A stretch of DNA of 64,000 nucleotides from Candidatus Cloacimonadales bacterium (GTDB lineage Bacteria; Cloacimonadota; Cloacimonadia; Cloacimonadales; JAFGVF01). A program made the translations under genes and the position numbers. A model generated the notes under the pieces. That model was not told where the DNA came from. It worked only from the letters and a program-made list of their open reading frames with translations, and did no database searches. The stretch lies in contig OY782499.1 of NCBI GenBank assembly GCA_963677815.1, forward strand, positions 613,252 to 677,251, read 5' to 3'. Below, piece by piece: positions 211 through 64,000 of the stretch (within the stretch, counting starts at the first letter, position 1; every line of letters begins with the position of its first letter).

Positions 211-247
211 TAACACCCCCTATTTTCCCCCTCACTAAGGGGGATTC
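211..247 (-). repeat. Family F hairpin repeat, solo copy (minus orientation)
   Basis: The sequence taacaccccctattttccccctcactaagggggattc closely matches the right inverted repeat of DUF559 copy 2 (63761-63797). It contains the stem ccccc/ggggg. Confidence 0.85.
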
Positions 248-2949: not shown

Positions 2950-3510
2950 ATGGCTTCAACTTCTGATATCCGTAATGGAATGATTATAGAATGGAAAAAT
3001 GGAATTTACGAATTCGTTGAATTCCTACATGTTAAACCTGGTAAAGGTGCAGCATTTGTAAGATCTAAGCTTAGAAATGTTAGAACTGGTCAAGTAGTAG
3101 AAAACACCTTCAGAACCAGTGAAACATTCACAGAAATTAGAATTGAAAAAAGTAAAAAAGAATATTTATACAGAGATGGTGAATTCTACGTTCTCATGGA
3201 TTTAGATAACTATGAGATGATGAATGTACATGCTGATGTTATGGAGAAATATGCAAAATTCTTAAAAGAGAATATGCAAATCACTATCAAAACAACACCA
3301 GAGAATGAAATCATTGACTTAGAACTTCCTGTATACGTTATCCAAGAAATCGCAGAGTGCGAACCTAACATAAAAGGTAATACTGCATCAGGTAGTGGTA
3401 AAGTAGCTACAACAGAAACTGGTTTAAGAATCATGGTTCCTTTCTTTGTTGAACAAGGTGAGAAAATCAAGATTGATACAAGAACCGGCGAATATATTGA
3501 AAGAGCTTAA
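2950..3510 (+). CDS. efp: Translation elongation factor P
   Basis: 186 aa. The start (MASTSDIRNGMIIEW...) and the VKPGKGAAFVRSKLRNV loop are classic EF-P features. A purine-rich SD (aaaagagga) lies upstream. Confidence 0.95.
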   Translation: MASTSDIRNGMIIEWKNGIYEFVEFLHVKPGKGAAFVRSKLRNVRTGQVVENTFRTSETFTEIRIEKSKKEYLYRDGEFYVLMDLDNYEMMNVHADVMEKYAKFLKENMQITIKTTPENEIIDLELPVYVIQEIAECEPNIKGNTASGSGKVATTETGLRIMVPFFVEQGEKIKIDTRTGEYIERA

Positions 3511-15786: not shown

Positions 15787-16256
15787 GGCTCAAGTTCAAG
15801 TCTAGTGGAAAAAATTTAATAAAATATATAAAATTTTATCATTAGTGTGATTATCCAAAGTATCCCTGAAAGGGATTAATAATTTAGCCTGGGGTAAGAT
15901 CCTATAAGGATCGTCACCCCAGGAACAATATCCAAAATTACGACCTAACCCTGTAAGGGTTTAATATAATGGTAACTAATTTTAATATTAAATCATTGGT
16001 ATATAAGTTTTTATTAAACCCTTACAGGGTTAGGCTTTTTATATACATCATTACCCAGGGTTGCAATACCTTCAGGATTTTACCCTGGGCTAAACTATTA
16101 ATCCCCTTTAGGGATATAAGATCTATCCTTTCAGGATTATGTCTTATTCTGCTAAAATAATACTAACAATAGTAACTTATAATCCGTAAACTACTGTAAT
16201 ACAATATCTAGTGCAAAATAATGCAACATAATTTCCACCAGACTTGAACTTGAGCC
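15787..16256 (+). mobile_element. Family D MITE-like element (470 bp) with 25-bp terminal inverted repeats and an 8-bp target-site duplication
   Basis: The terminal inverted repeats are ggctcaagttcaagtctagtggaaa and tttccaccagacttgaacttgagcc (24/25 complementary). TAAATAAT occurs at 15779-15786 and again at 16257-16264. The interior is two inverted ~150-bp halves, each with three hairpins. There is no credible ORF. Confidence 0.9.
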
Positions 16257-23596: not shown

Positions 23597-23633
23597 AATA
23601 GTCCAGTATCAGTTGTGAGTTTGGCAGAGTAAC

Positions 23634-23693
23634 AATCCCCTTTCAGCTCCTTGGAGCGCTTGAGAGGGGTGGTCGAATAGACCGGGGAGAGTA
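23634..23693 (-). repeat. Family A hairpin repeat, solo copy (minus orientation)
   Basis: The sequence aatcccctttcagctccttggagcgcttgagaggggtggtcgaatagaccggggagagta is the reverse complement of the A consensus. Confidence 0.9.
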
Positions 23694-23836
23694 TTTGTTG
23701 GACGGTGGAGAATAATAGGAGACCGGAGTTCCTCAGCCTAGGCAAGGGACTTCGGGCGAAACTAATGCTAAACAATTTCCAAAAAATATAAAATTCTTTG
23801 TTACTTTTTTCATTATTCTCTTATAATAAAAAAAAC

Positions 23837-24469
23837 GGCTCAAGTTCAAGTCTTGTGGAAATTATGTTGCATTATTTTGCACTAGATATTGTATTACAGT
23901 AGTTTACGGATTATAAGTTACTATTGATAGTATTATTTTAGCAGAATAAGACATAATCCTGAAAGGATAGGTCTTATATCCCTAAAGGGGATTAATAGTT
24001 TAGCCCAGGGTAAAATCCTGAAGGGATTGCAACCCTGGGTAATGATGTATATAAAAAGCCTAACCCTGTAAGGGTTTAATAAAAACATATATATCAATGA
24101 TTTAACCCAGATTGTACAATAGAGCTTTAGAGAAGAGTGCAGATTCTTTTAGCAAAATAGCTTACAGAATTTTGACGCATATAATATATATATTCGGAGA
24201 AATTATGGAAGTTACTTTTGCAGAAGAATATAGTGCTATTCACAAAGGTCTACTGCATTATTTGGGTTTAATATTATAATTAGTTACCATTATATTAAAC
24301 CCTTACAGGGTTAGGTCGTAATTTTGGATATTGTTCCTGGGGTGACGATCCTTATAGGATCTTACCCCAGGCTAAATTATTAATCCCTTTCAGGGATACT
24401 TTGGATAATCACACTAATGATAAAATTTTATATTTTATTAAATTTTTCCACCAGACTTGAACTTGAGCC
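23837..24469 (-). mobile_element. Family D element, second copy, inverted relative to D1 and interrupted by a family B element
   Basis: It has the same terminal inverted repeats (ggctcaagttcaagtcttgtggaaa ... tttccaccagacttgaacttgagcc). The interior is collinear with the reverse complement of D1 except for a 161-bp insertion at 24106-24266. I see no matching TSD at its own ends. Confidence 0.9.
24106..24266. mobile_element. Family B element copy B2, nested inside D2, with a 5-bp TSD (TTTAA)
   Basis: TTTAA lies at 24101-24105 and at 24267-24271. The corresponding uninterrupted site in D1 reads caatgatttaatatt (reverse complement), with a single TTTAA. Confidence 0.9.
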
Positions 24470-35268: not shown

Positions 35269-36423
35269 ATGTTTTATCCAGATTTTAATAATAATTTGCT
35301 AAATTTGACAGCATCAATATCTTTATCTTATGGATGCCAGACGTCTTATCAGCCTTTATTAAATATATCAGCTGATAAGCTTTCTCAGAAAGAAAATATT
35401 ATACTTATGGTTATTGATGGTTTAGGGTATAATTTTTTTAACAAATTTGTTTCTGAAAAAATATTACAAGACAATACTTTAGGGTCTATAACATCTGTAT
35501 TCCCTTCTACAACCGCAGTTGCAATTACCTCTATTTTAACAGGTAAATCGCCAAAAGAGCATGCATTAACAGGCTGGTTTGTTTATTTGAAAGAACTTGG
35601 TTCTGCCTCTAAAATATTACCTCTTGAACCAAGATATTCTACTAGCACATATTTTGATAATCATGCTGATTCAAACATTATCTATGATTTAGATTCTATC
35701 TTTGATAACTTTAATGCTCAAGCCCACTTTGTACATCTAAATAAGTATAAAGATGACTATTATCAAAAGATTCTTAGAGGGCAATCTATTTTCCATGGAT
35801 TTGACCAACTTGACCAAATATCTTCCTCTATAAGCAATATTCTAGAAAACAAAGTTTCTCAAAGGAATTTCATATATACCTACTGGAATGGCTTAGATGC
35901 AATTTCTCATCAATATGGTTATGATTCTGAACAAGCAATAGATCACTTCAATAAAATTCAAGAAGAAATTGTCAATATCGTGAATTCTATCGATAGAGAA
36001 AATACTAGTCTAATTATTACAGCAGACCATGGTTTCATCAATGTTAATAATGATAATAAGCTGAGAGTTAAGGATATTCCAGGATTAAGAGATTGCTTAG
36101 TCTTACCGCTTATGGGAGAACCAAGATCACCCTACTGCTATTTAAGATCTGGGAAAGAAGAAAAATTTAAACAAATATGGAAACAATATCTTTCGCCTTA
36201 TTCTCAACTTTTTCATATTGACGAAATGATCGATAAACAAGTTTTTGGATTAAACAAGATGAATAACAAGTTTACTGATAGAGTAGGAGACTATATCATA
36301 GTAATGAATGATGGTTATGTCTTGATTGATAATGTATTATTAGAAAAGGAGATGGATTTAGTTGGATACCATGGTGGTCTTTCTGAAAATGAGATGATGG
36401 TTCCTCTAATCTACATTACTTAG
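35269..36423 (+). CDS. Alkaline phosphatase superfamily protein (type I phosphodiesterase/nucleotide pyrophosphatase-like)
   Basis: Motifs MVIDGLGYNF, PSTTAVAITSILTG, ITADHGF and GYHGG are typical metal-ligand and nucleophile motifs of this superfamily. Confidence 0.7.
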   Translation: MFYPDFNNNLLNLTASISLSYGCQTSYQPLLNISADKLSQKENIILMVIDGLGYNFFNKFVSEKILQDNTLGSITSVFPSTTAVAITSILTGKSPKEHALTGWFVYLKELGSASKILPLEPRYSTSTYFDNHADSNIIYDLDSIFDNFNAQAHFVHLNKYKDDYYQKILRGQSIFHGFDQLDQISSSISNILENKVSQRNFIYTYWNGLDAISHQYGYDSEQAIDHFNKIQEEIVNIVNSIDRENTSLIITADHGFINVNNDNKLRVKDIPGLRDCLVLPLMGEPRSPYCYLRSGKEEKFKQIWKQYLSPYSQLFHIDEMIDKQVFGLNKMNNKFTDRVGDYIIVMNDGYVLIDNVLLEKEMDLVGYHGGLSENEMMVPLIYIT

Positions 36424-37054: not shown

Positions 37055-40000
37055 ATGAAGAAATTTATTTTATTAATTTCACTGATTATGTCTATCACAA
37101 TGGTGATGGCACTTCAGGAAAACTTAATGGATTTACATCAAAACAGCATTACTCTGCAAAATAGTAATGATTATGGTGTAGATATTAGTTATGAATTAGG
37201 AACAATCGAGATTAAAATCCAAGACACTCGTGGTGGTCAATATGCTGAGATTTCAGCAAAAGACTTCTCTTTGACTAAAGATGAAGGTTTACCTCAACTA
37301 CCATATAGTCAAAAAATTATCTCAGTTCCTCTTGGAGCAAGCATTCAAGCATCTGTTGATGTTAAATCAGCAAGCAGTGTAAATTTGAATACTAGAGGTA
37401 TTAATGCCCAAATTATCCCTGCTCAAGCATCTGTAGCTAAATGTGAAAATGTAGAAGACCTACCTTTCGCTAAAAATATTGAAATATATAGTGCTAACAA
37501 ATCCTTTAAATACCAACCTGTAACTGTTAATGAAATCGGTATTCTTAGAGGAATGAGACTTTTTGAAGTAAATTTCTACCCTGTTGAATACAATCCAGTT
37601 TCTGGTGATATCAGAGTAATCAATAGTGCTGATGTTAATGTTGAATTTATCAACGGCGACATCTATGCTACTGAAGAATTAAAAGCTAAAACTAGATCTT
37701 TCATGTTTGAAGGTATCTATGCCCAAAACATTTTTAACTACTACCCTTCAAGATCTTCTTTAGAAAACTACCCTTTAGGCTACATTATAGTTACTCCTAA
37801 TCAATTCCTTGATACTTTAGAACCTTTCATCACTTGGAAACAAGAACAAGGGTATGATGTTACTGTAGCAACTACTGAAAATATTGGTTCTTCAACTACA
37901 GCTATCAAAAACTATATTCAAGGCATTTGGGATGCAGCTACTCCTGATAATCCAGCTCCATCTTACTTATTGTTAGTTGGTGATACTCCTCAAATCCCAG
38001 CTTATGCTGGTTCTACAGACTCTGGTCATGTTACAGACCTTAACTATGTAAGATTAAGCGGAACTGACTATCTTCCAGAAATGTATTACGGAAGATTCTC
38101 TGCAACTTCTGTTGCTCAGTTAACACCTCAAGTGAACAAAACTCTTACTTACCAAAAATATGAAATGGCCGATCCTTCTTACCTAGAAAAAGCTACTCTT
38201 ATCGCTGGTGTTGATAGCTATTACGCTTCAACTCATGGTAATGGTACATTAAATTATGGTAGTGATAACTATTTTAACGAAGCTCATGATCTAGATGTAA
38301 ATACTTACTATTACCCACAATCAGGCAATTCAGCGGCTGCTATCGTTAGTGATGTTAGCCTTGGTTTAGGTTACTTAAACTATACTGCTCACGGCTCTGA
38401 AACCACTTGGGCTGATCCTAGCTTCACAATCGCGAACATTAACAGTCTTCAAAATTATGGAAAATATCCAGTTGTTGTTGGTAACTGCTGTTTAACTAAC
38501 CACTTCAATACAGGAACTTGCTTTGGTGAAGCCTGGTTAAGAGCTACCAATGGTGCTGTTATTTATATTGGTGGAACAAACTCTACTTACTGGGACGAAG
38601 ATTACTGGTGGTCTGTTGGTCACTTTACACCAACATCTACTGATAGTCCAACCTATGCTGGAACAGGTTTCGGTATGTTTGATGCTTTATTCCATGAACA
38701 TAATGAAGCTTTTGAAGACTGGGCTCATACTGCTGGTGCTATGGTTGTTACTGGTAATATGGCTGTTCAATCATCTTCTTCTTCTAGAAAAAATTACTAT
38801 TGGGAAATCTATTCTATCATGGGTGACCCTTCATTAATGCCATACATCGGCGTGCCTGATGCTCAAAATGTAGATTATACAAATACTATGCTTGTTGGTA
38901 TGACTTCTCTTAATATTACAGCTGCTCCTTATAGCTACGCAGCTCTTTCAAAAGATGGTCAATTACTGGGCACTGTTCTTACAGATGGTTCTGGTAACGG
39001 AACTATTAACTTTGAAGCTATCAATGTTCCTGGAAATGTTAAATTAGTCGTTTCTCACACTGATTACCAACCTTTTATTACTGATATTGAAGTTGTTCCT
39101 GCAGAAGGTCCTTTCTTAGTAATCGATAACCAACAAATCACTGGTAATGTTGCAGCTGGTCAAGAACTTGATCTTGCTTTCACAATTGCTAATGTTGGTG
39201 TTGAAGCAGTTTCTAATGTTAATGTTACTTTAACTAGTACAGACGGAAATGCAAATATAGTTAATGGTGCTACTACTATTGCTAATATCGATGCTGAAGC
39301 TACTGCCCAACTTGCCTCTGCTTTAGAAGTTACCCTTGCAGATGGTTTAAATCATGGCGAAGTAGTAGCCTTCAATCTTGAATTAGCTTCTTCTGATGAT
39401 ACTTGGAATTACCAATTTGCCCTAACTGCTGTAGGTCCTCATTTTATTATTACTGATGTAACTGTAAATGATGGTGATAATAACTTACTTGACCCTAACG
39501 AAACAGCAGAACTACTTATTTGCTACCAAAATAACGGTTCATTTGTTGCAAATAATACAATAGCTAACCTGATTTCTACTACTCCTGGAATCACTGTTAC
39601 AGACACAAATATTGAACTTGGAGATATTGCTGTTAATGCTAGTGGTCAATTAGCTGTAACTGTTGAAACTTCAGCTTATATGGAAACAGGAACTATGGCT
39701 GATTTCACTACTACTTTTACTAGTGATAATGAAGTTAACTCTTCAGATAACTTCACTCTTTCTGTAGGTTTACTCTTTGAAGATTTCGAATCTGGTGATT
39801 TCTCAAGTGATTTCAACTGGAATACTCCTGGTTGGACTGTTGTTTCTAGTGATGCTCATCAAGGTAGCCATTCTGCTAAATCAAATACTATTTCTCATAA
39901 CCAATCAGCTAGCATGACTGTCCAAATGGATGATGTTACTGCTGGTCAAATCTCTTTCTGGGTAAAAGTATCTTCTGAACCTGGCTATGATGAATTAACT

Positions 40001-40819
40001 TTCTACATAGACAACGTCGCCCAAGATACTTGGAGTGGTACTGTGGCTTGGCAAGAAGTTTCTTACGATGTAACTGATGGCAACCATACCTTCAAGTGGG
40101 AATATGATAAAGATATTAGTATGAATGAAGGTAGTGACTGTGCTTGGATAGATTATATTGTCTTCCCTAGTGCTATTAGTGAAGTTGGAGACCCTGTTAT
40201 TGCCGTTGATATGACAGAATATGACTTCGGTAGTGTAACTACAGGTGAAACTCAATTCAATATTTCTAACACAGGCCAAGGTATCTTAGCAGGTCAAATT
40301 ACTCTTAACCAAGAAAGTGTTTTCTCAGTTTCTATTAATGATAACCCAGCAAGTAGCCAAATTAACTACTCACTCGATCCTGCTCAAAGTATTGAAGTAA
40401 CTCTTTACTTCAACCCAATCGCAAATGATGAATATTCAGACAACATCCTTATTACATCTAATGATCCTCAACAGGAACAACTTGTAATCACTGTTAACGG
40501 AACAGGCTCTGGTGTATCTAATGATAACAATAATATTCCTCAAATTACTGAACTTCAAGGAAACTACCCAAATCCATTTAATCCAGAAACCGCTATTAAA
40601 TATGCAGTTAAGAAAGATGGTGATGTTTCCTTAAAAATATTTAACCTAAAAGGCCAGCTTGTTAAAACTCTTGTTAATCAACAGGTTAAAGCTGGTTATC
40701 ATAGAATCGTCTGGGACGGTAAAGATAATTTTGGAACAGATGTTGCAACAGGTATATACTTGTATCGTCTAGAAACCAAAACATATAACCAAACCAAAAA
40801 GATGATGCTGATGAAATAA
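37055..40819 (+). CDS. Gingipain-like peptidase C25 with a T9SS C-terminal sorting domain
   Basis: 1254 aa. Has a signal peptide and an N-terminal propeptide-like region. The catalytic region has YLLLVGDTPQIPAY, YLNYTAHGSETTW (His) and VVVGNCCLTNHF (Cys). The C-terminus is NYPNPFNPETAIKY...GIYLYRL. Confidence 0.9.
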   Translation: MKKFILLISLIMSITMVMALQENLMDLHQNSITLQNSNDYGVDISYELGTIEIKIQDTRGGQYAEISAKDFSLTKDEGLPQLPYSQKIISVPLGASIQASVDVKSASSVNLNTRGINAQIIPAQASVAKCENVEDLPFAKNIEIYSANKSFKYQPVTVNEIGILRGMRLFEVNFYPVEYNPVSGDIRVINSADVNVEFINGDIYATEELKAKTRSFMFEGIYAQNIFNYYPSRSSLENYPLGYIIVTPNQFLDTLEPFITWKQEQGYDVTVATTENIGSSTTAIKNYIQGIWDAATPDNPAPSYLLLVGDTPQIPAYAGSTDSGHVTDLNYVRLSGTDYLPEMYYGRFSATSVAQLTPQVNKTLTYQKYEMADPSYLEKATLIAGVDSYYASTHGNGTLNYGSDNYFNEAHDLDVNTYYYPQSGNSAAAIVSDVSLGLGYLNYTAHGSETTWADPSFTIANINSLQNYGKYPVVVGNCCLTNHFNTGTCFGEAWLRATNGAVIYIGGTNSTYWDEDYWWSVGHFTPTSTDSPTYAGTGFGMFDALFHEHNEAFEDWAHTAGAMVVTGNMAVQSSSSSRKNYYWEIYSIMGDPSLMPYIGVPDAQNVDYTNTMLVGMTSLNITAAPYSYAALSKDGQLLGTVLTDGSGNGTINFEAINVPGNVKLVVSHTDYQPFITDIEVVPAEGPFLVIDNQQITGNVAAGQELDLAFTIANVGVEAVSNVNVTLTSTDGNANIVNGATTIANIDAEATAQLASALEVTLADGLNHGEVVAFNLELASSDDTWNYQFALTAVGPHFIITDVTVNDGDNNLLDPNETAELLICYQNNGSFVANNTIANLISTTPGITVTDTNIELGDIAVNASGQLAVTVETSAYMETGTMADFTTTFTSDNEVNSSDNFTLSVGLLFEDFESGDFSSDFNWNTPGWTVVSSDAHQGSHSAKSNTISHNQSASMTVQMDDVTAGQISFWVKVSSEPGYDELTFYIDNVAQDTWSGTVAWQEVSYDVTDGNHTFKWEYDKDISMNEGSDCAWIDYIVFPSAISEVGDPVIAVDMTEYDFGSVTTGETQFNISNTGQGILAGQITLNQESVFSVSINDNPASSQINYSLDPAQSIEVTLYFNPIANDEYSDNILITSNDPQQEQLVITVNGTGSGVSNDNNNIPQITELQGNYPNPFNPETAIKYAVKKDGDVSLKIFNLKGQLVKTLVNQQVKAGYHRIVWDGKDNFGTDVATGIYLYRLETKTYNQTKKMMLMK

Positions 40820-40877
40820 CCTCCTTGTATGCTAGCAGAAAAGGTTGGGCTCCCCGCCCAACCTTTCTGCATTTATA
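40762..40877 (+). repeat. 116-bp direct repeat, copy 1 (last 19 codons of the C25 gene plus its terminator hairpin)
   Basis: Identical to 41704-41820 apart from one 1-nt indel (cagaaaagg versus cagacaaagg). Confidence 0.95.
40835..40870. terminator. Long GC-rich hairpin after the C25 gene (probable terminator; duplicated at about 41778-41813)
   Basis: The stem is gcagaaaaggttgggc / gcccaacctttctgc with loop tccc. The T-run is 9 nt downstream, so it is not a textbook intrinsic terminator. Confidence 0.55.
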
Positions 40878-40948: not shown

Positions 40949-41177
40949 CCCAGATGGTGCAGTAGAGCTTTAGTAATACTTCGCTAAAGCTACGTATCAC
41001 AGGCGAAGAGTGCATATTCTTTTAGCAAAATCCCCTTCTTTGAGGGGGATACAGGGGATGATTCCTTTGATACGCATATAATATATATATTCAGATGAAT
41101 TATCTAAGTTACTTTTGCAATGAGTCTTCGCTAAAGCTACGCCCTCACAAGAATAATATAGTGCTATTTTCAATAAA
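40949..41177. mobile_element. Family B-related element (left part), carrying an internal family F hairpin
   Basis: The left terminus cccagatggtgcagtagagctttagtaatacttcgctaaagctacg matches B3. The interior matches B1/B2 (gaagagtgcatattcttttagcaaaa ... acgcatataatatatatattc ... aagttacttttgca). The canonical right terminus is missing here; a right-end-like sequence (ctattgcattatt) occurs at about 41683-41695. Confidence 0.6.
41028..41066 (+). repeat. Family F hairpin copy inserted inside the B-related element
   Basis: The sequence aaatccccttctttgagggggatacaggggatgattcc interrupts the segment that is contiguous in B1/B2 (tagcaaaa|tagcttac...). Confidence 0.75.
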
Positions 41178-41213: not shown

Positions 41214-41337
41214 ATACTCTCCCCGGTCTTCACGACCACCCCTCTCAGGCGCTCCAAGGAGCTGAAAGGGGATTGTTTACTCTCCCCGGTCTACACGACC
41301 ACCCTTCTCAAGCGCTCCAAGGAGCTGAAAGAGGATT
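41214..41337 (+). repeat. Family A hairpin repeat, 2 tandem copies
   Basis: The sequence is atactctccccggtcttcacgaccacccctctcaggcgctccaaggagctgaaaggggatt followed by a second, slightly diverged copy. Confidence 0.9.
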
Positions 41338-41703
41338 TATTTATTGATGTGCAAAATTTGCTATATAAACCACTTTAAAAAGTTTATAAACATTATTAGA
41401 TAAACTCTTAATAGAATTATATTCCTACTAATCTATTACTGAGCTGTTCTATGCATTGCTAAAAAGCCCATCCTATAGTACACTTAGTTTACTAGTGATA
41501 AGGATTTTTTCGTAACTATGTAGACACTTCTCATTAAAGGCAAGCAAGTGTCAATTTACTTACTTTTATGCACATAAATATATCCTATATGTGTGATTTC
41601 TTAATCTGCTGATAATAAACATTTTAACTAAGTGTTTTATAAAAATTGTTATTTTTTTTAAAATTTAATTTGTTTGGAACAGCTATTGCATTATTATATA
41701 AGC

Positions 41704-41820
41704 GTATCGTCTAGAAACCAAAACATATAACCAAACCAAAAAGATGATGCTGATGAAATAACCTCCTTGTATGCTAGCAGACAAAGGTTGGGCTCCCCGC
41801 CCAACCTTTCTGCATTTATA
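41704..41820 (+). repeat. 116-bp direct repeat, copy 2 (orphan duplicate of the C25 gene 3' end plus terminator hairpin)
   Basis: See 40762-40877. It lies 14 nt from the stop of the convergent TPR gene. Confidence 0.95.
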
Positions 41821-53765: not shown

Positions 53766-54015
53766 CTATCCCCTTTCAGTTCGTAAGAGCGTTTGAGAGG
53801 GGTGGTCGTGTAGACCGGGGAGAGTAAACAATCCCCTTTCAGCTCGTAAGAGCGTCTGAGAGGGGTGGTCGAGTAGACCGGGGAGAGTAAACAATCCCCT
53901 TTCAGCTCGTAAGAGCGTCTGAGAGGGGTGGTCGAGTAGACCGGGGAGAGTAAACAATCCCCTTTCAGCTCGTAAGAGCGCTTGAGAGGGGTGGTCGTGT
54001 AGACCGGGGAGAGTA
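53766..54015 (-). repeat. Family A' hairpin repeat array: 4 tandem copies, 63-bp period, minus orientation, abutting the DUF559 copy 1 start
   Basis: The motif atcccctttcag starts at 53768, 53831, 53894 and 53957. The unit is atcccctttcagctcgtaagagcgtctgagaggggtggtcgagtagaccggggagagtaaaca. The array ends 2 nt before ATG 54018. Confidence 0.95.
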
Positions 54016-54017
54016 AT

Positions 54018-54398
54018 ATGAATACAATAAATTACAACAAAAAATTAAAGAAATATTCTAATAAATTAAAGAAAAATCTAACTCTACCAGAAGTACTATT
54101 TTGGAATAAAGTAAAAAATAAACAACTTGGATATAGATTCTACAAGCAGAAACCAATTGGAAATTATATAGTGGATTTTTATTGTGCTAAATTTAAATTA
54201 ATTATTGAAATTGATGGAAGGGATCATGATTTCAAAGAAGAATATGATGAAAAGAGAGAAATTTATCTAGAAAAATTAGGGATGAAGATTATTAGGTTCT
54301 CAAATTATCAAATATACAAACAGTTAGATGGTTGCATTGAATATATTCAGGGTTTTTTAAAAGGAAATCAAGAGTGTAATGATAAAAGACCAATATAA
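54018..54398 (+). CDS. DUF559 (Vsr-like / PD-(D/E)xK endonuclease fold) protein, copy 1
   Basis: 126 aa. Has LTLPEVLFWNKVK...YIVDFYCAKFKLIIEIDGRDH...MKIIRFSNYQI, which matches my recollection of the DUF559 core (aDFyc...liiEiDG..H ... RF.N.ei). The ORF abuts repeat arrays at both ends. Confidence 0.85.
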   Translation: MNTINYNKKLKKYSNKLKKNLTLPEVLFWNKVKNKQLGYRFYKQKPIGNYIVDFYCAKFKLIIEIDGRDHDFKEEYDEKREIYLEKLGMKIIRFSNYQIYKQLDGCIEYIQGFLKGNQECNDKRPI

Positions 54399-54644
54399 TA
54401 CTCTCCCCGGTCTACACGACCACCCCTCTCAGGCGCTCCAAGGAGCTGAAAGGGGATTAATACTCTCCCCGGTCTACACGACCACCCCTCTCAAGCGCTC
54501 CAAGGAGCTGAAAGGGGATTAATACTCTCCCCGGTCTACTCGACCACCCCTCTCAAGCGCTCCAAGGAGCTGAAAGGGGATTAATACTCTCCCCGGTCTA
54601 CTCGACCACCCCTCTCAGGCGCTCCAAGGAGCTGAAAGGGGATT
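54399..54644 (+). repeat. Family A hairpin repeat array: 4 tandem copies, 62-bp period, plus orientation, starting at the nucleotide after the DUF559 copy 1 stop
   Basis: The motif tactctcc starts at 54399, 54461, 54523 and 54585. The unit is tactctccccggtctacacgaccacccctctcaggcgctccaaggagctgaaaggggattaa. Confidence 0.95.
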
Positions 54645-54651
54645 AATACTT

Positions 54652-54717
54652 ATAGCTTGATTGTTACTCTCTCAATAGATTCTCATTGATTTATTGAGAT
54701 AGTAACAATCAAGCTAT
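54652..54717. repeat. Family C palindrome, copy C3
   Basis: The arms are atagcttgattgttactctctcaata and tattgagatagtaacaatcaagctat, forming a ~26-bp stem with one mismatch. Confidence 0.85.
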
Positions 54718-58397: not shown

Positions 58398-58410
58398 TTT
58401 ACTCTTTTTT

Positions 58411-58531
58411 ACTCTCCCCGGTCTACTCGACCACCCCTCTCAAGCGCTCCAAGGAGCTGAAAGGGGATTGTTTACTCTCCCCGGTCTACTCGACCACCCC
58501 TCTCAAGCGCTCCAAGGAGCTGAAAGGGGAT
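58411..58531 (+). repeat. Family A hairpin repeat, 2 tandem copies (62-bp period)
   Basis: The motif tactctcc starts at 58411 and 58473. It is followed by a further hairpin, gcggatgtggtcatccgc. Confidence 0.9.
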
Positions 58532-61196: not shown

Positions 61197-62435
61197 ATGT
61201 ATTTAATGATTAAGAGACTTATATTTTTGGCAACTTGTACACTCCTTCTATTTGCTTGTAATAACAAAGAAAATAATATTGGAATTACTCAATCTGATCT
61301 AATACCAATGGCTGGACAAATTGATTCTTTTTCTCAAGAATTTTCCTTCAGAGATAGTATTTCTGTTAATGGAGAAAACTATAAACTCTTAGTAGCAAAT
61401 ACCCAAGAAGTAGAATCTCAAGCTATTGTTTCTTTTGCTTATTTACCAGATAATGTTGAGTATATAGCTGATGCTACTTTAACTTTTTATACTGATCTAA
61501 AGCCTGAAGGTGATATGGAATTCAAAATTAAGAGAATCGAACAAGATTATTTAGAATCTCAAGCTACTTGGCAAGAAGCTAGCGAGGGAGAAACTTGGGA
61601 TGAAGATTTAATATTTGAAAGTATAACACCAGCTGTAACATTAACTGATACTGTTGCAGGAAGAATAGATTCCTTAGTATTTAATCTTCCTGTTGAAGAA
61701 ATAAAAACTTGGACAGAAACAGATCAAGCACTTTTCACACTTATGGTTTATACTGAGTCAAACAATTATATAGAGCTTTATTCATCCGAAAACTCTAAAA
61801 ATCCTATATTGAACTTCAAATATATGCTTAACAGTGAAACAGAAGAAAAGGAATATAGTAGAAATGCTTTCAAGGATACCTATATTGTTAACGACAAGCT
61901 GGGATTAGAGCAAGTATGGGCTCCTATGATTTCTTTAAGTAATATGACGCCTAAACGAGCATTTTTGAAGTTTGACCTTGATACAAATTTAATTTTAAAT
62001 CAAGAAGGGGATAATTTAACTCAATTCCAAAAAGATCATCTTACTGTTAATAGTGCTTACATCAGATTGTATGTAAAAAACTTTTCTTTCTTTGATGGTA
62101 ATAGATCTGTTTATATCACACCTTACAGAGTAATGGAAGAAGTTACTGATATAGCTATGATTGATAAAATTAATAATTTAGAATATTTAAATAATACTGG
62201 TACTAGTGTGGCAACTATTGAATCTGCTCCTGATTCTACTCAGTATGTTGATGTTAAAATAACCCCAATTTTGCAAGGCTTTATCTCTGGTGAAAAAGAT
62301 AATTTCGGTATTGTTATGACCTCTTCTTATCAATCAACTAACTTTGATGCTATTGAATTTTATGGAAAAGAGGCAGAAGATGAGAGTTTAAGACCTAAAG
62401 TACATTTCGTTTATACTTTACCTATGGAAGATTGA
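61197..62435 (+). CDS. Lipoprotein of unknown function
   Basis: 412 aa. Has a lipobox (LLLFAC). I recognise no catalytic motif. The start could be the internal MIKRL at 61206. Confidence 0.6.
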   Translation: MYLMIKRLIFLATCTLLLFACNNKENNIGITQSDLIPMAGQIDSFSQEFSFRDSISVNGENYKLLVANTQEVESQAIVSFAYLPDNVEYIADATLTFYTDLKPEGDMEFKIKRIEQDYLESQATWQEASEGETWDEDLIFESITPAVTLTDTVAGRIDSLVFNLPVEEIKTWTETDQALFTLMVYTESNNYIELYSSENSKNPILNFKYMLNSETEEKEYSRNAFKDTYIVNDKLGLEQVWAPMISLSNMTPKRAFLKFDLDTNLILNQEGDNLTQFQKDHLTVNSAYIRLYVKNFSFFDGNRSVYITPYRVMEEVTDIAMIDKINNLEYLNNTGTSVATIESAPDSTQYVDVKITPILQGFISGEKDNFGIVMTSSYQSTNFDAIEFYGKEAEDESLRPKVHFVYTLPMED

Positions 62436-62448
62436 AGACAGGAAGGAA

Positions 62449-63196
62449 GAAGATTCTTTACACTAATTAACACGAATTAGAGCGAATTTCACGAATAAGA
62501 AGAAGTCTATCCACGGATTTCACTAATTACACGAATTACTTTTTGCTAAAAAGGGATTGTTCGTTTTTGGTCGAGGTATTCCAGTCCGTGGTTACGCAGA
62601 TGCCAAGATATAGATAAATCCCCCTTTGAGAGGGGGACGACAGGGGGGGGGCCTTTGTTTCCTTAACACAGAGTTTAGAAAAGAAGATTCTTTACGCGAA
62701 TTAACTCGAATTAGAGCGAATTTCACGAATAAGAAGAAATCTATCCACGGATTTCACTAATTACACGAATTACTTTTTGCTAAAAGTGTTAGTCTATGGG
62801 GAGCAGGATTCTAGCCTGTGGTTACGCAGATGCAAAGATATAGATAAATCCCCCTTTGAGAGGGGGACGACAGGGGGGGCCTTTGTTTCCTTAACACAGA
62901 GTTTAGAAAAGAAGATTCTTTACACTAATTAACTCGAATTAGAACGAATTTCACGAATAAGAAGAAGTCTATCCACGGATTTCACTAATTACACGAATTA
63001 CTTTTTGCTAAAAAGGGATTGTTGGTTTTTGGTCGCGGGATTCCAGTTCGCTATTACGCAGGTGACATGGATATAGATAAATCCCCCTTTGGGAGGGGGA
63101 AGACAGGGGGAGTTCCTTTGTTTTCTTTAACACAGAGTTTAGAAAAGAAGATTCTTTACGCGAATTAACTCGAATTAGAACGAATTTCACGAATTT
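62449..63196 (+). repeat. Tandem array of 3.2 copies of a ~228-236 bp composite unit (CGAAT-rich segment + H motif + family F hairpin)
   Basis: The motif gaagattcttta starts at 62449, 62683, 62911 and 63147. Each full unit ends with ...ggttacgcagRtg...atagataaatccccctttgagagggggacgacaggggg...tttcc. Confidence 0.95.
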
Positions 63197-63351
63197 ACTG
63201 GTTTAAAGGTTTGTAAGATATTGGAAGATTAATAGATAAAGAAAAGTGAGTGATTATATTTATATGTTTTATAATCATCCATTAGTTAGAAAAAAAAATT
63301 ATCCCGAAGGGATAACAGCCTGTGGTTACGCAGATGTCAAGATATAGATAA

Positions 63352-63388
63352 ATCCCCCTTTGAGAGGGGGAAAATAGGGGGTGTTTCC
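63352..63388 (+). repeat. Family F hairpin, left inverted repeat flanking DUF559 copy 2
   Basis: The sequence atccccctttgagagggggaaaatagggggtgtttcc is the exact reverse complement of 63761-63797. It ends 4 nt before ATG 63393. Confidence 0.95.
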
Positions 63389-63392
63389 ATAT

Positions 63393-63758
63393 ATGTTAAC
63401 AAAAGTACCTTATAGGTTACCTTATAATAAAGATTTAAAAGAAAAAGCTAGGTTTTTAAGAATTAATCAAACTAATGCTGAAAAGAAGCTATGGTATCAA
63501 TATTTATCACCTCACAAAGAAAAATTTAATAGACAGAAAATAATAGATAATTTTATTGTTGATTTTTATTGTGCTAGGCATAAATTAGTAATTGAAATTG
63601 ATGGTGAAACACATAATAGTGATAGATCTTATAATTATGATAAAAGAAGAACTCAAGTTCTAAATTCTTATGGATTAATAGTTATAAGATTTTCGAATTA
63701 CGAAATATATAATGAATTTGATAGTGTGATAGAAAGAATTGAAGAATATTTGAAATGA
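63393..63758 (+). CDS. DUF559 (Vsr-like / PD-(D/E)xK endonuclease fold) protein, copy 2
   Basis: Has QTNAEKKLWYQYL...FIVDFYCARHKLVIEIDGETH...LIVIRFSNYEI. By eye it is about 40% identical to copy 1 over the core. I chose ATG 63393; the track uses GTG 63381, which lies inside the flanking repeat. Ends with a TGA stop at 63756-63758. Confidence 0.85.
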   Translation: MLTKVPYRLPYNKDLKEKARFLRINQTNAEKKLWYQYLSPHKEKFNRQKIIDNFIVDFYCARHKLVIEIDGETHNSDRSYNYDKRRTQVLNSYGLIVIRFSNYEIYNEFDSVIERIEEYLK

Positions 63759-63760
63759 TA

Positions 63761-63797
63761 GGAAACACCCCCTATTTTCCCCCTCTCAAAGGGGGAT
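63761..63797 (-). repeat. Family F hairpin, right inverted repeat flanking DUF559 copy 2
   Basis: The sequence ggaaacaccccctattttccccctctcaaagggggat begins 2 nt after the TGA stop (63756-63758). Confidence 0.95.
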
Positions 63798-63822
63798 GTG
63801 GAGGAAAGGAAGCAAAACATAT

Positions 63823-64000
63823 ATGAAAAAAAATATTTTACTAGTAATAATATTAATGATAGCTTTAATATCTAGTGCTGAAGTGTTAGATAGGATAATT
63901 GCTAAAGTGGGTAATGATATAATATTGCAGTCTGATTTAGAAAAACAAATGATGCAGATGCAAAGTGCTGGAATGTTAGATGAATCAATGACAGAGCAAG
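63823..64000 (+). CDS. N-terminal fragment of a SurA-like periplasmic chaperone/PPIase; 3' end lies off-window
   Basis: ATG 63823 is preceded by ggaggaaagga. The translation MKKNILLVIILMIALISSAEVLDRIIAKVGNDIILQSDLEKQ resembles the SurA N-terminal domain (LDRIVAVVG...IL.SDL). Confidence 0.55.
   Translation, partial: MKKNILLVIILMIALISSAEVLDRIIAKVGNDIILQSDLEKQMMQMQSAGMLDESMTEQ

Follow-up and report, generated by a model that had tools for sequence, protein, structure and literature searches.

A DUF559 endonuclease gene between inverted hairpin repeats in a Cloacimonadales genome as a candidate REPtron-like module

The described systems closest to the locus reported here are the REPtrons, which unite RAYT/TnpA-REP proteins with REP/BIME repeats (REP, repetitive extragenic palindromic): a nuclease gene lies between inverted copies, often in arrays, of a hairpin repeat with further copies dispersed through the genome. 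Many bacterial genomes are rich in hairpin repeats that have no known mobilising enzyme, and DUF559 is a very large protein family, including YcjD of Escherichia coli, without an established function. Here we describe a compact cassette of 446 bp at positions 63352-63797 of a 64-kb window (the whole analysed stretch of 64,000 nucleotides, from contig OY782499.1 of Candidatus Cloacimonadales assembly GCA_963677815.1), in which a DUF559 gene is enclosed by two inverted hairpin units. The cassette resembles a REPtron in this organization and in its paralogue-specific repeat type, vertical inheritance, purifying selection, and concerted repeat evolution. It differs in that its enzyme is a predicted Vsr-fold PD-(D/E)XK-type nuclease and not an HUH/Y1 transposase, so that the covalent single-strand transposition chemistry of the latter is not available to it; in that its units carry three matched C/G runs in lieu of GTAG or CGTC tags; and in that, in contrast to RAYTs, whole DUF559 cassettes are present in several copies in some genomes and can be found in frame within genes. 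An earlier note on this DNA, made from the sequence alone, had likened the arrangement to RAYT subfamilies and their REP types; the parallel holds for the organization but not for kinship of the enzymes, as DUF559 proteins are unrelated to HUH transposases.

Two other kinds of element offer partial parallels. Insertion sequences (IS) and miniature inverted-repeat transposable elements (MITEs) share with the cassette perfect terminal inverted repeats (37/37 nt here) that hug a single small open reading frame (ORF), and short tails-inward doublets of units are MITE-like. Unlike such elements, the cassette has no known transposase fold or clear target-site duplication, and its solo copies are mostly single units. 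Rickettsia palindromic elements and intragenic REPs are likewise short palindromic units that are in frame and translated (here as SPLERGFRGV and similar peptides), whereas the units described here are found on both sides of a nuclease gene as well, and the in-frame insert can comprise the entire cassette.

The DUF559 cassette and its nuclease

The cassette, which we term locus 2, occupies a chromosomal intergenic site with a lipoprotein gene on one side and a SurA-like gene on the other. A repeat search of the window recovered its inverted repeat as 37 of 37 complementary nucleotides with 372 nt between the arms: the left arm, ATCCCCCTTTGAGAGGGGGAAAATAGGGGGTGTTTCC, lies at 63352-63388 on the plus strand, and the right arm, at 63761-63797 on the minus strand, is its exact reverse complement. 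The left arm stands 4 nt (atat) before the ATG at 63393, and 2 nt (ta) separate the TGA stop codon (63756-63758) from the right arm. Both the perfect repeat and this close spacing had been claimed in the earlier note and are confirmed by the repeat search and the sequence. The left arm is an F-type unit, composed of a CCCCC-TTTGAGA-GGGGG hairpin, an AAAATA spacer, a second G-run, GGGGGTG (63377-63383, plus strand, 9 nt 5' of the ATG), and TTTCC, with its tail toward the gene. The tail of the right arm points toward the stop codon, and this arm adjoins sequence homologous to the empty site of relatives. Upstream, the left arm continues into an extension (63312-63351, plus strand) common to the units of a neighboring tandem array. 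The left arm is the end of this 72-nt repeat, family D3 (63312-63383), which is 88-94% identical to the array units, so that the arm belongs to a partial fourth array unit; the right arm matches this repeat over its last 37 nt only.

The second G-run of the left arm probably doubles as a ribosome-binding site, judging by its spacing. Across DUF559 loci from many phyla the inner G-run lies 5-10 nt from the start codon in most cassettes, and it is therefore probably a ribosome-binding site in these as well. Together with the N-termini of orthologues, this spacing leads us to prefer the ATG at 63393 as the start codon over a GTG at 63381 that lies inside the repeat. In a terminator check, the right arm was followed by ATGTGGAGG and by no T tract, so it is not an intrinsic terminator; only the minus-strand readings of left-side units score as terminators in the intrinsic-terminator test. 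The predicted fold of a transcript across both arms pairs the 37-nt arms around the ORF (dG -134.6, z=-10.7). Rfam gave no match at gathering score in the whole window and, at permissive E-values, only sub-threshold and meaningless matches in 62400-63900.

The ORF (63393-63758, plus strand, 121 aa) matches PF04480, DUF559, at E=4.8e-31 (107.3 bits against a gathering cut-off of 20.6). A 121-aa protein on record, P0001, is 100% identical to it, and exact-sequence look-ups of P0001 and of both DUF559 proteins of the window returned no contig. The second DUF559 gene of the window, at locus 1, encodes a diverged paralogue, as the earlier note had recognized; the identity of about 40% judged there by eye is 45% by BLASTP. 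When 25 DUF559 proteins of many phyla are aligned, E30, Q48, D57, F58, E68, D70, G71, H74, D83, R86, G94, and R99 are invariant and present in both window proteins, and they include the catalytic motif D...E-x-D-G-x2-H (D57, E68, D70, G71, H74). The nearest solved structure by sequence is 3HRL, a Neisseria 'endonuclease-like protein' (E=7.1e-15), followed by 3R3P, the catalytic domain of the homing endonuclease I-Bth0305I (E=0.0017). By these matches, the window proteins have a predicted restriction-endonuclease-like (Vsr-type) fold, and the locus 2 protein is a putative Vsr-fold PD-(D/E)XK-type endonuclease. The family comprises 19,623 clusters at 50% identity (E <=0.001, representative library), and many of its members carry the JGI label 'very-short-patch-repair endonuclease'; the Pfam assignment of the window proteins is DUF559 and not Vsr.

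Searches for other enzymes near the cassette were negative. The Pfam matches of the cassette ORF are of DUF559 type only, with no HUH/Y1 or other known transposase family among them, and tblastn found no Y1/IS200-type transposase in the window to which the units might otherwise be ascribed. Neither DUF559 locus has a methyltransferase beside it, the neighbors being ordinary housekeeping genes. A role as a defense system was considered and set aside, as PADLOC gave weak matches to generic nuclease models only, among them one to a 'homing endonuclease' model. In a separate observation, the interior (36103-36234) of the ORF at 35269-36423 weakly resembles the N-terminal part of the F-type DUF559 protein (32% over 44 aa, E=5e-4, tblastn).

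Unit architecture and its pairing with DUF559 genes

At locus 1, the DUF559 ORF (54018-54398, plus strand, 126 aa) is preceded by four tandem 63-nt A-type units (53768-54016, plus strand), each with a first hairpin that contains a nested hairpin, a second hairpin, and a G-run tail toward the gene. It is followed by four tandem 62-nt A-type units in inverted orientation (54396-54650, minus strand), located by repeat search and regular expression. Families A and F have the same polarity, with AATCCCC...GAGAGGGG...GGGG reading toward the gene on the upstream side of both loci, in agreement with the matching orientation proposed in the earlier note. The units share the consensus AAnT, C4-6, loop T(T/C)...(A/G)A, G4-6, spacer, G4-6, T(G/T). 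Among 102 distinct units, the lengths of the C-run and the two G-runs are equal (4/4/4, 5/5/5, or 6/6/6) in 62, and they are correlated (r(C,G1)=0.79; r(C,G2)=0.64). This ties the second G-run to the hairpin structurally, with alternative pairing or a third-strand interaction as possibilities. The A-type, or complex, units elaborate this plan with the nested hairpin within the loop and the second hairpin as the spacer; the second hairpin keeps its fold with five unrelated sequences in five genomes. The loop TCTTGAGA or TCTTGGGA is near-identical in Bacteroidota, Planctomycetota, Nitrospirota, and this genome despite proteins that are only ~40-45% identical, which points to constraint on the DNA itself. 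The GTAG and CGTC superfamilies, defined by their tags (PMC3733652), were rejected as the unit type: REP stems are 8-9 bp, start with an AT pair, and bear these tags, whereas the units consist of C/G runs.

The geometry of the cassette is specific to DUF559 genes across many phyla. We scored the flanks of 41 DUF559 loci in representative genomes of Cloacimonadota, Cyanobacteria, Bacteroidota, Nitrospirota, Planctomycetota, several proteobacterial classes, Firmicutes, and Caldisericia. Inverted repeats scoring >=15 within 150 nt of both ORF ends occurred at 10 of 28 DUF559 loci but at 0 of 172 other ORFs (Fisher 6e-10), and in an independent sample of viral contigs 8 of 15 testable DUF559 loci reached the same score. 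A same-strand unit lay just upstream at 16/35 DUF559 loci (2/199 control ORFs), an inverted unit just downstream at 13/35 (0/199), and the two together at 8/35 (0/199). Adjacent tails-inward pairs of units 301-520 nt apart enclosed a DUF559 gene in all 18 cases, and pairs of the other orientations at this distance numbered 3-5. The arrangement is thus no coincidence, as the earlier note had argued from its two loci. Nor do the arms behave as a terminator or attenuator pair common to unrelated genes, given the 10/28 against 0/172 and the right arm that has no T tract.

Each paralogue keeps its own unit type. The F-type orthologues at L001, L043, and L045 all have F-type units, and an 86% identical A-type orthologue on a 2.48-Mb contig (L063) lies between two single A-type units, which show a compensatory change in the second hairpin; its 20-kb neighborhood has nothing else in common with the window, so the site is non-syntenic. 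Although the A and F units of the window are only 47% alike, each is 83-88% similar to the unit that accompanies the orthologous gene in a different genome, a contrast that, being inside one genome, is free of confounding by genome relatedness. Over 25 cassettes, protein identity and unit identity are correlated (Mantel r=0.44, p=0.0002), a value confounded by the shared ancestry of the genomes. The pairing of DUF559 lineages with repeat subtypes suggested in the earlier note thus finds support, with the caveat that at deep levels simple and complex units are both present inside one protein clade. L064, a 58% relative of the A-type protein, retains the A architecture with entirely different nested hairpins. 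As a side observation, the nested-hairpin loop is GTAA in the four left-hand A units of locus 1 and CTTG in the four right-hand units and all solos, both being stable tetraloop types; the GTAA subtype occurs within the window only beside the gene and in L063 on both sides.

A regular expression for the C-run, loop, G-run, spacer, and second G-run, applied to the window and to shuffled sequences, found 20 units where 0.04 were expected. Family A accounts for the eight units of locus 1 and for solos at 23637, 41221, and 58416/58479; family F for the two arms, three array units, and solos at 216-243 and 41032. The solo F unit spans 211-247 (minus strand; 216-243 by the regular expression), and the tandem array (62447-63194, plus strand, period 228 nt, 3.2 copies) carries an F-like unit per copy, at 62618-62655, 62848-62883, and 63081-63114. 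These copies, listed in the earlier note, are real, as is a diverged F-like unit at 41028-41066 (plus strand), described there as lying inside another mobile element; it is nested in another repeat of ~200 nt. The A solos comprise one unit at 23633-23695 (plus strand), two tandem units, the second degenerate, at 41215-41337 (minus strand), and two tandem units at 58408-58531 (minus strand).

A related arrangement may exist in E. coli. K-12 has a single DUF559 gene, ycjD, which ends inside a degenerate inverted unit at its stop codon. About 170 nt further 3', past a duplicated fragment of the 3' end of ycjD, lies CCCCTCGCCCCTCTGGGGAGAGGGTTAGGGTGAGGGG (L042, 3200-3800), which has the same architecture of a hairpin, a TTA spacer, and then GGGTGAGGGG. 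This repeat belongs to a dispersed family that is present in all 5426 complete E. coli genomes (median 18 copies, maximum 32) and that, from its copy number and sequence, we take to be BoxC. The identification is consistent with the 22-32 copies of the published BoxC family (PMC2267715). Unlike the cassette, ycjD has no unit upstream in the K-12 region, and the family persists in strains that lack the gene: the ycjD segment including the BoxC-like element is found at >=80% coverage in ~3350-3380 of the 5426 genomes. A search for a clean empty site in E. coli found none: the one genome inspected that gave no ycjD match (L149) has an RND efflux locus instead.

Insertion, inheritance, and movement of cassettes

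Relatives of the Cloacimonadales genome reveal the history of locus 2. In L001 (Cloacimonadales OY759729.1), a 76% identical DUF559 gene with F-type arms lies between the same lipoprotein and SurA-like genes, and L043 has a 78% identical DUF559 gene with the upstream gene and arms in common with the window. A metagenome scan with the SurA alignment as query yielded L048 and L050, in which the two genes are 36 nt apart with neither DUF559 nor repeats between them and SurA is 77-78% identical to that of L001; a scan with the lipoprotein as query gave no match, and L049, a genome more distantly related, is arranged differently again. Because of the empty 36-nt sites, the cassette and the upstream array are an insertion: the array (62447-63194) is part of the material missing from the relatives' empty site, and homology to the empty site restarts immediately beyond the right arm. 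Purine-rich GGAAGGAAG-like strings stand at both edges of the 1.35-kb insert, the empty sites being from diverged species. The inserted cassette has since been inherited vertically with its protein under purifying selection, as it is syntenic in three genomes and the DUF559 orthologues have dN/dS of 0.09-0.28 at dS of 0.8-1.5, where synonymous sites are near saturation.

Despite this divergence between genomes, the arms are identical inside this genome. They carry the loop TTTGAGA and spacer AAAATA in the window, the loops TCCGTGA and TCCGCGA with spacers ACACA and ACAAA in L001, and the loop TCGGTGA in both arms with spacers ACAGCA and AACACAA in L045. Arms are thus more like each other and the dispersed copies of their own genome than like orthologous arms, with a mean identity of 0.78 inside one cassette against 0.58 between cassettes, and a solo 2.6 kb from the left arm of L001 matches that arm at 40 of 40 nt. 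We conclude that the arms evolve in concert with each other and with the dispersed family.

The cassette moves as a whole in other lineages, where it has been duplicated in single genomes or has entered genes in frame. The cassettes of L007 and L010, from one metagenome-assembled genome, match at 98% identity over 530 nt, as far as the contigs reach, and the DNA upstream of them is unrelated; further duplicates within single metagenome-assembled genomes extend over ~540 nt (L026/L028, 92.5%; L019/L022, 85%). In Bacteroidota and Caldisericia, cassettes without a start or stop codon of their own lie in frame inside type IIG and type ISP restriction-modification genes. Their arms are translated as SPLERGFRGV and TPLNPLSRGDF, further solo units are in frame in the same genes, and the translated units form proline/glycine-rich linkers. 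Among the top 150 family representatives, at least 10 long proteins contain an internal DUF559, of which six are restriction-modification enzymes; other hosts are MnmA, a class I aminoacyl-tRNA synthetase, and a PabB-PabC-like read-through (in-frame loci: P0382 (MnmA), P0311, P0316, L020, L021, L023, L002, and L003). Sphingomonad cassettes lie between glyQ and glyS, as identified from flanking translations, and one cassette is inside an RND efflux operon. Since cassettes are found within operons and in frame within genes, the arms are not strong terminators.

Interpretation, alternatives, and other repeats of the window

On balance, we favor the reading that the cassette is one instance of a widespread REPtron-like nuclease-repeat module built on a PD-(D/E)XK-type nuclease and not on an HUH transposase. 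The substrate of the nuclease would be the unit in its folded form, with hairpin and G-tract, on DNA that is single-stranded or extruded, and the nick would fall beside it. Through host repair or replication, the resulting breaks could drive copying and gene conversion of units, tandem amplification of the arms and, occasionally, movement of the whole cassette; the inner G-run would also serve as ribosome-binding site of the nuclease gene. In a bolder and more tentative form of this proposal, which we put at somewhat less than even, small DUF559 endonucleases may be the dedicated enzymes of a large class of 'three-run' REP-like hairpin repeats that spans phyla, possibly including E. coli BoxC. 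They would then constitute a second, independently evolved nuclease-repeat symbiosis beside RAYT/REP, whose ~450-bp cassette also invades coding genes in frame, without intein splicing motifs. We found no literature linking DUF559, YcjD, or Vsr-like proteins to flanking repeats, in a search that left subscription journals largely uncovered.

Several points weigh against this proposal. The tie of DUF559 to the repeats is one of sequence association, and about a third to a half of DUF559 loci have no recognizable unit. A PD-(D/E)XK nuclease of 121 aa is alone incapable of strand transfer, so any mobility must be indirect. The presence of the BoxC-like family in all 5426 E. coli genomes, against ~3350-3380 with the ycjD region, means that units can persist without the nuclease. 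The unit census reflects the 64-kb window of this genome and not genome-wide abundance, and the Mantel correlation is subject to the confounding already noted. Finally, the only experimentally studied DUF559 protein that we found, Caulobacter VsrA, has been interpreted as an endonuclease of mismatch repair that is associated with a cytosine methyltransferase (PMC12907096).

That last point bears on the alternative of a solitary very-short-patch-type mismatch nickase that works with an unlinked cytosine methyltransferase, the repeats being unrelated to its substrate and either marking mobile DNA or acting on expression. Vsr and Vsr-like repair endonucleases (E. coli Vsr, Caulobacter VsrA) resemble the window proteins in fold, catalytic motif, and small stand-alone size, the JGI names say as much, VsrA with its DUF559 domain leads to SOS induction once the ScmA methyltransferase is deleted (PMC12907096), and a repair function would fit the purifying selection. 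However, the window genes sit in a repeat-flanked cassette with a methyltransferase next to neither locus, and this alternative leaves unexplained the homogenized arms, the paralogue-specific unit types, and a unit architecture kept across phyla while the proteins diverged to ~40% identity; it seems to us decidedly improbable. We rate as merely unlikely a selfish element of the homing type, in which DUF559 would cut unit-containing or empty sites and its gene would be copied in by break repair, with units as targets or landing pads and solos as an independent REP-like population spread otherwise. The EDxHD/Vsr-like homing endonucleases (I-Bth0305I, 3R3P) share with the cassette a homologous catalytic domain, a selfish-element lifestyle, and presence/absence polymorphism, seen here at one site, and the PADLOC 'homing endonuclease' match points the same way. 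So do multi-copy cassettes, cassettes at contig ends, the intein-like in-frame insertions in housekeeping genes, and short tails-inward doublets in cyanobacteria that are possible empty targets. Yet insertion into a single unit would split it and not yield two complete inverted units, and no tails-inward doublets were seen among the solos of the window. Homing endonuclease genes are not characterized by inverted repeats on their flanks, and the DUF559 cassette lacks an intron or intein context; its 121-aa protein corresponds to about the catalytic domain only, without the extended DNA-binding domain of known EDxHD homing enzymes. The synteny and purifying selection of the F cassette in three genomes also mark it as no recent invader, and although an empty allele exists at the locus 2 site, the cleavage site is not inferable from it.

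An explanation at the RNA level alone would make the units hairpins of the 5' and 3' untranslated regions that stabilize mRNA, terminate transcription, or sequester the start by long-range pairing, and that are common because they are generally useful. The predicted pairing of the arms around the ORF agrees with this, as do the resemblance of minus-strand F units to weak terminators and the position of all six solo sites of the window 3' of a gene and co-oriented with it. Such general usefulness is hard to square with a geometry missing from 199 control ORFs, and termination with a right arm that has no T tract; termination would moreover be harmful where cassettes lie in operons (glyQ-glyS, RND efflux) and in frame in genes, and the units themselves occur in frame in coding sequence. 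We hold this explanation to be very improbable. Mere coincidence or artefact, whether REP-like hairpins piling up in repeat-rich intergenic DNA or a misassembly, is harder still to credit and borders on the negligible: several repeat families are indeed abundant in the genome, but 20 units stand against 0.04 expected, the comparisons with control ORFs contradict it, and assemblies made independently, from many phyla, show the same arrangement.

If the REPtron-like module is real, its specific cross-phylum pairing gives DUF559 a testable function and a class of orphan REP-like elements a candidate enzyme, and the REPtron lifestyle would have had more than one origin, here with another catalytic scaffold. 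The possible link of YcjD and BoxC would open the question to tests in a model organism. The in-frame cassettes of MnmA, aminoacyl-tRNA synthetases, and restriction-modification proteins raise the further question of how proteins tolerate a nuclease-sized insert.

Other repeats were observed around these loci. Besides its F-like unit, each copy of the array at 62447-63194 has several CACGAAT(T/A)A motifs, and similar clusters (as AATTCGTG) are present in L064, where they adjoin DUF559, and in L047 and L043, where they lie upstream of SurA; L001 has, at the array site, two 212-nt units of different content. Also upstream of the SurA-like gene, L047, a close relative, has no DUF559 cassette and instead an IS200-like Y1 transposase ORF (246-701; PF01797, E=2e-26) accompanied by a different hairpin repeat (tgtcatccctgcgggatt). 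As this element occupies the same intergenic site, the site is a hotspot for hairpin-associated elements. The ~200-nt repeat that hosts the diverged F-like unit (aaacccagat...agtgctatt) has copies at 250-400 and 40950-41170; an F unit lies outside the 5' end of one and replaces ~15 nt inside the other, which suggests nested insertion of solo units. A 114-nt direct repeat (40753-40866 and 41695-41808, 87% identical), which includes the 3' end of the ORF at 37055-40819, flanks a stretch of ~830 nt in which two A units lie together with the F-like unit. Another hairpin family (TTGATTGTTACTCTCTCAATA..., arms of 29-43 nt, 8-nt loop) occurs at 409-502, near the solo F unit, and at 54652-54717, directly after the right array of locus 1. 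The six solo sites (216-243, 23637, 41032, 41221, 58416, and 58479) are all intergenic, 3' of a gene, and co-oriented with its transcription. Further repeat families (CCTAACCCTGTAAGGGTTTAATA) are present at 15944-16034 and 24059-24315, and also in L001.

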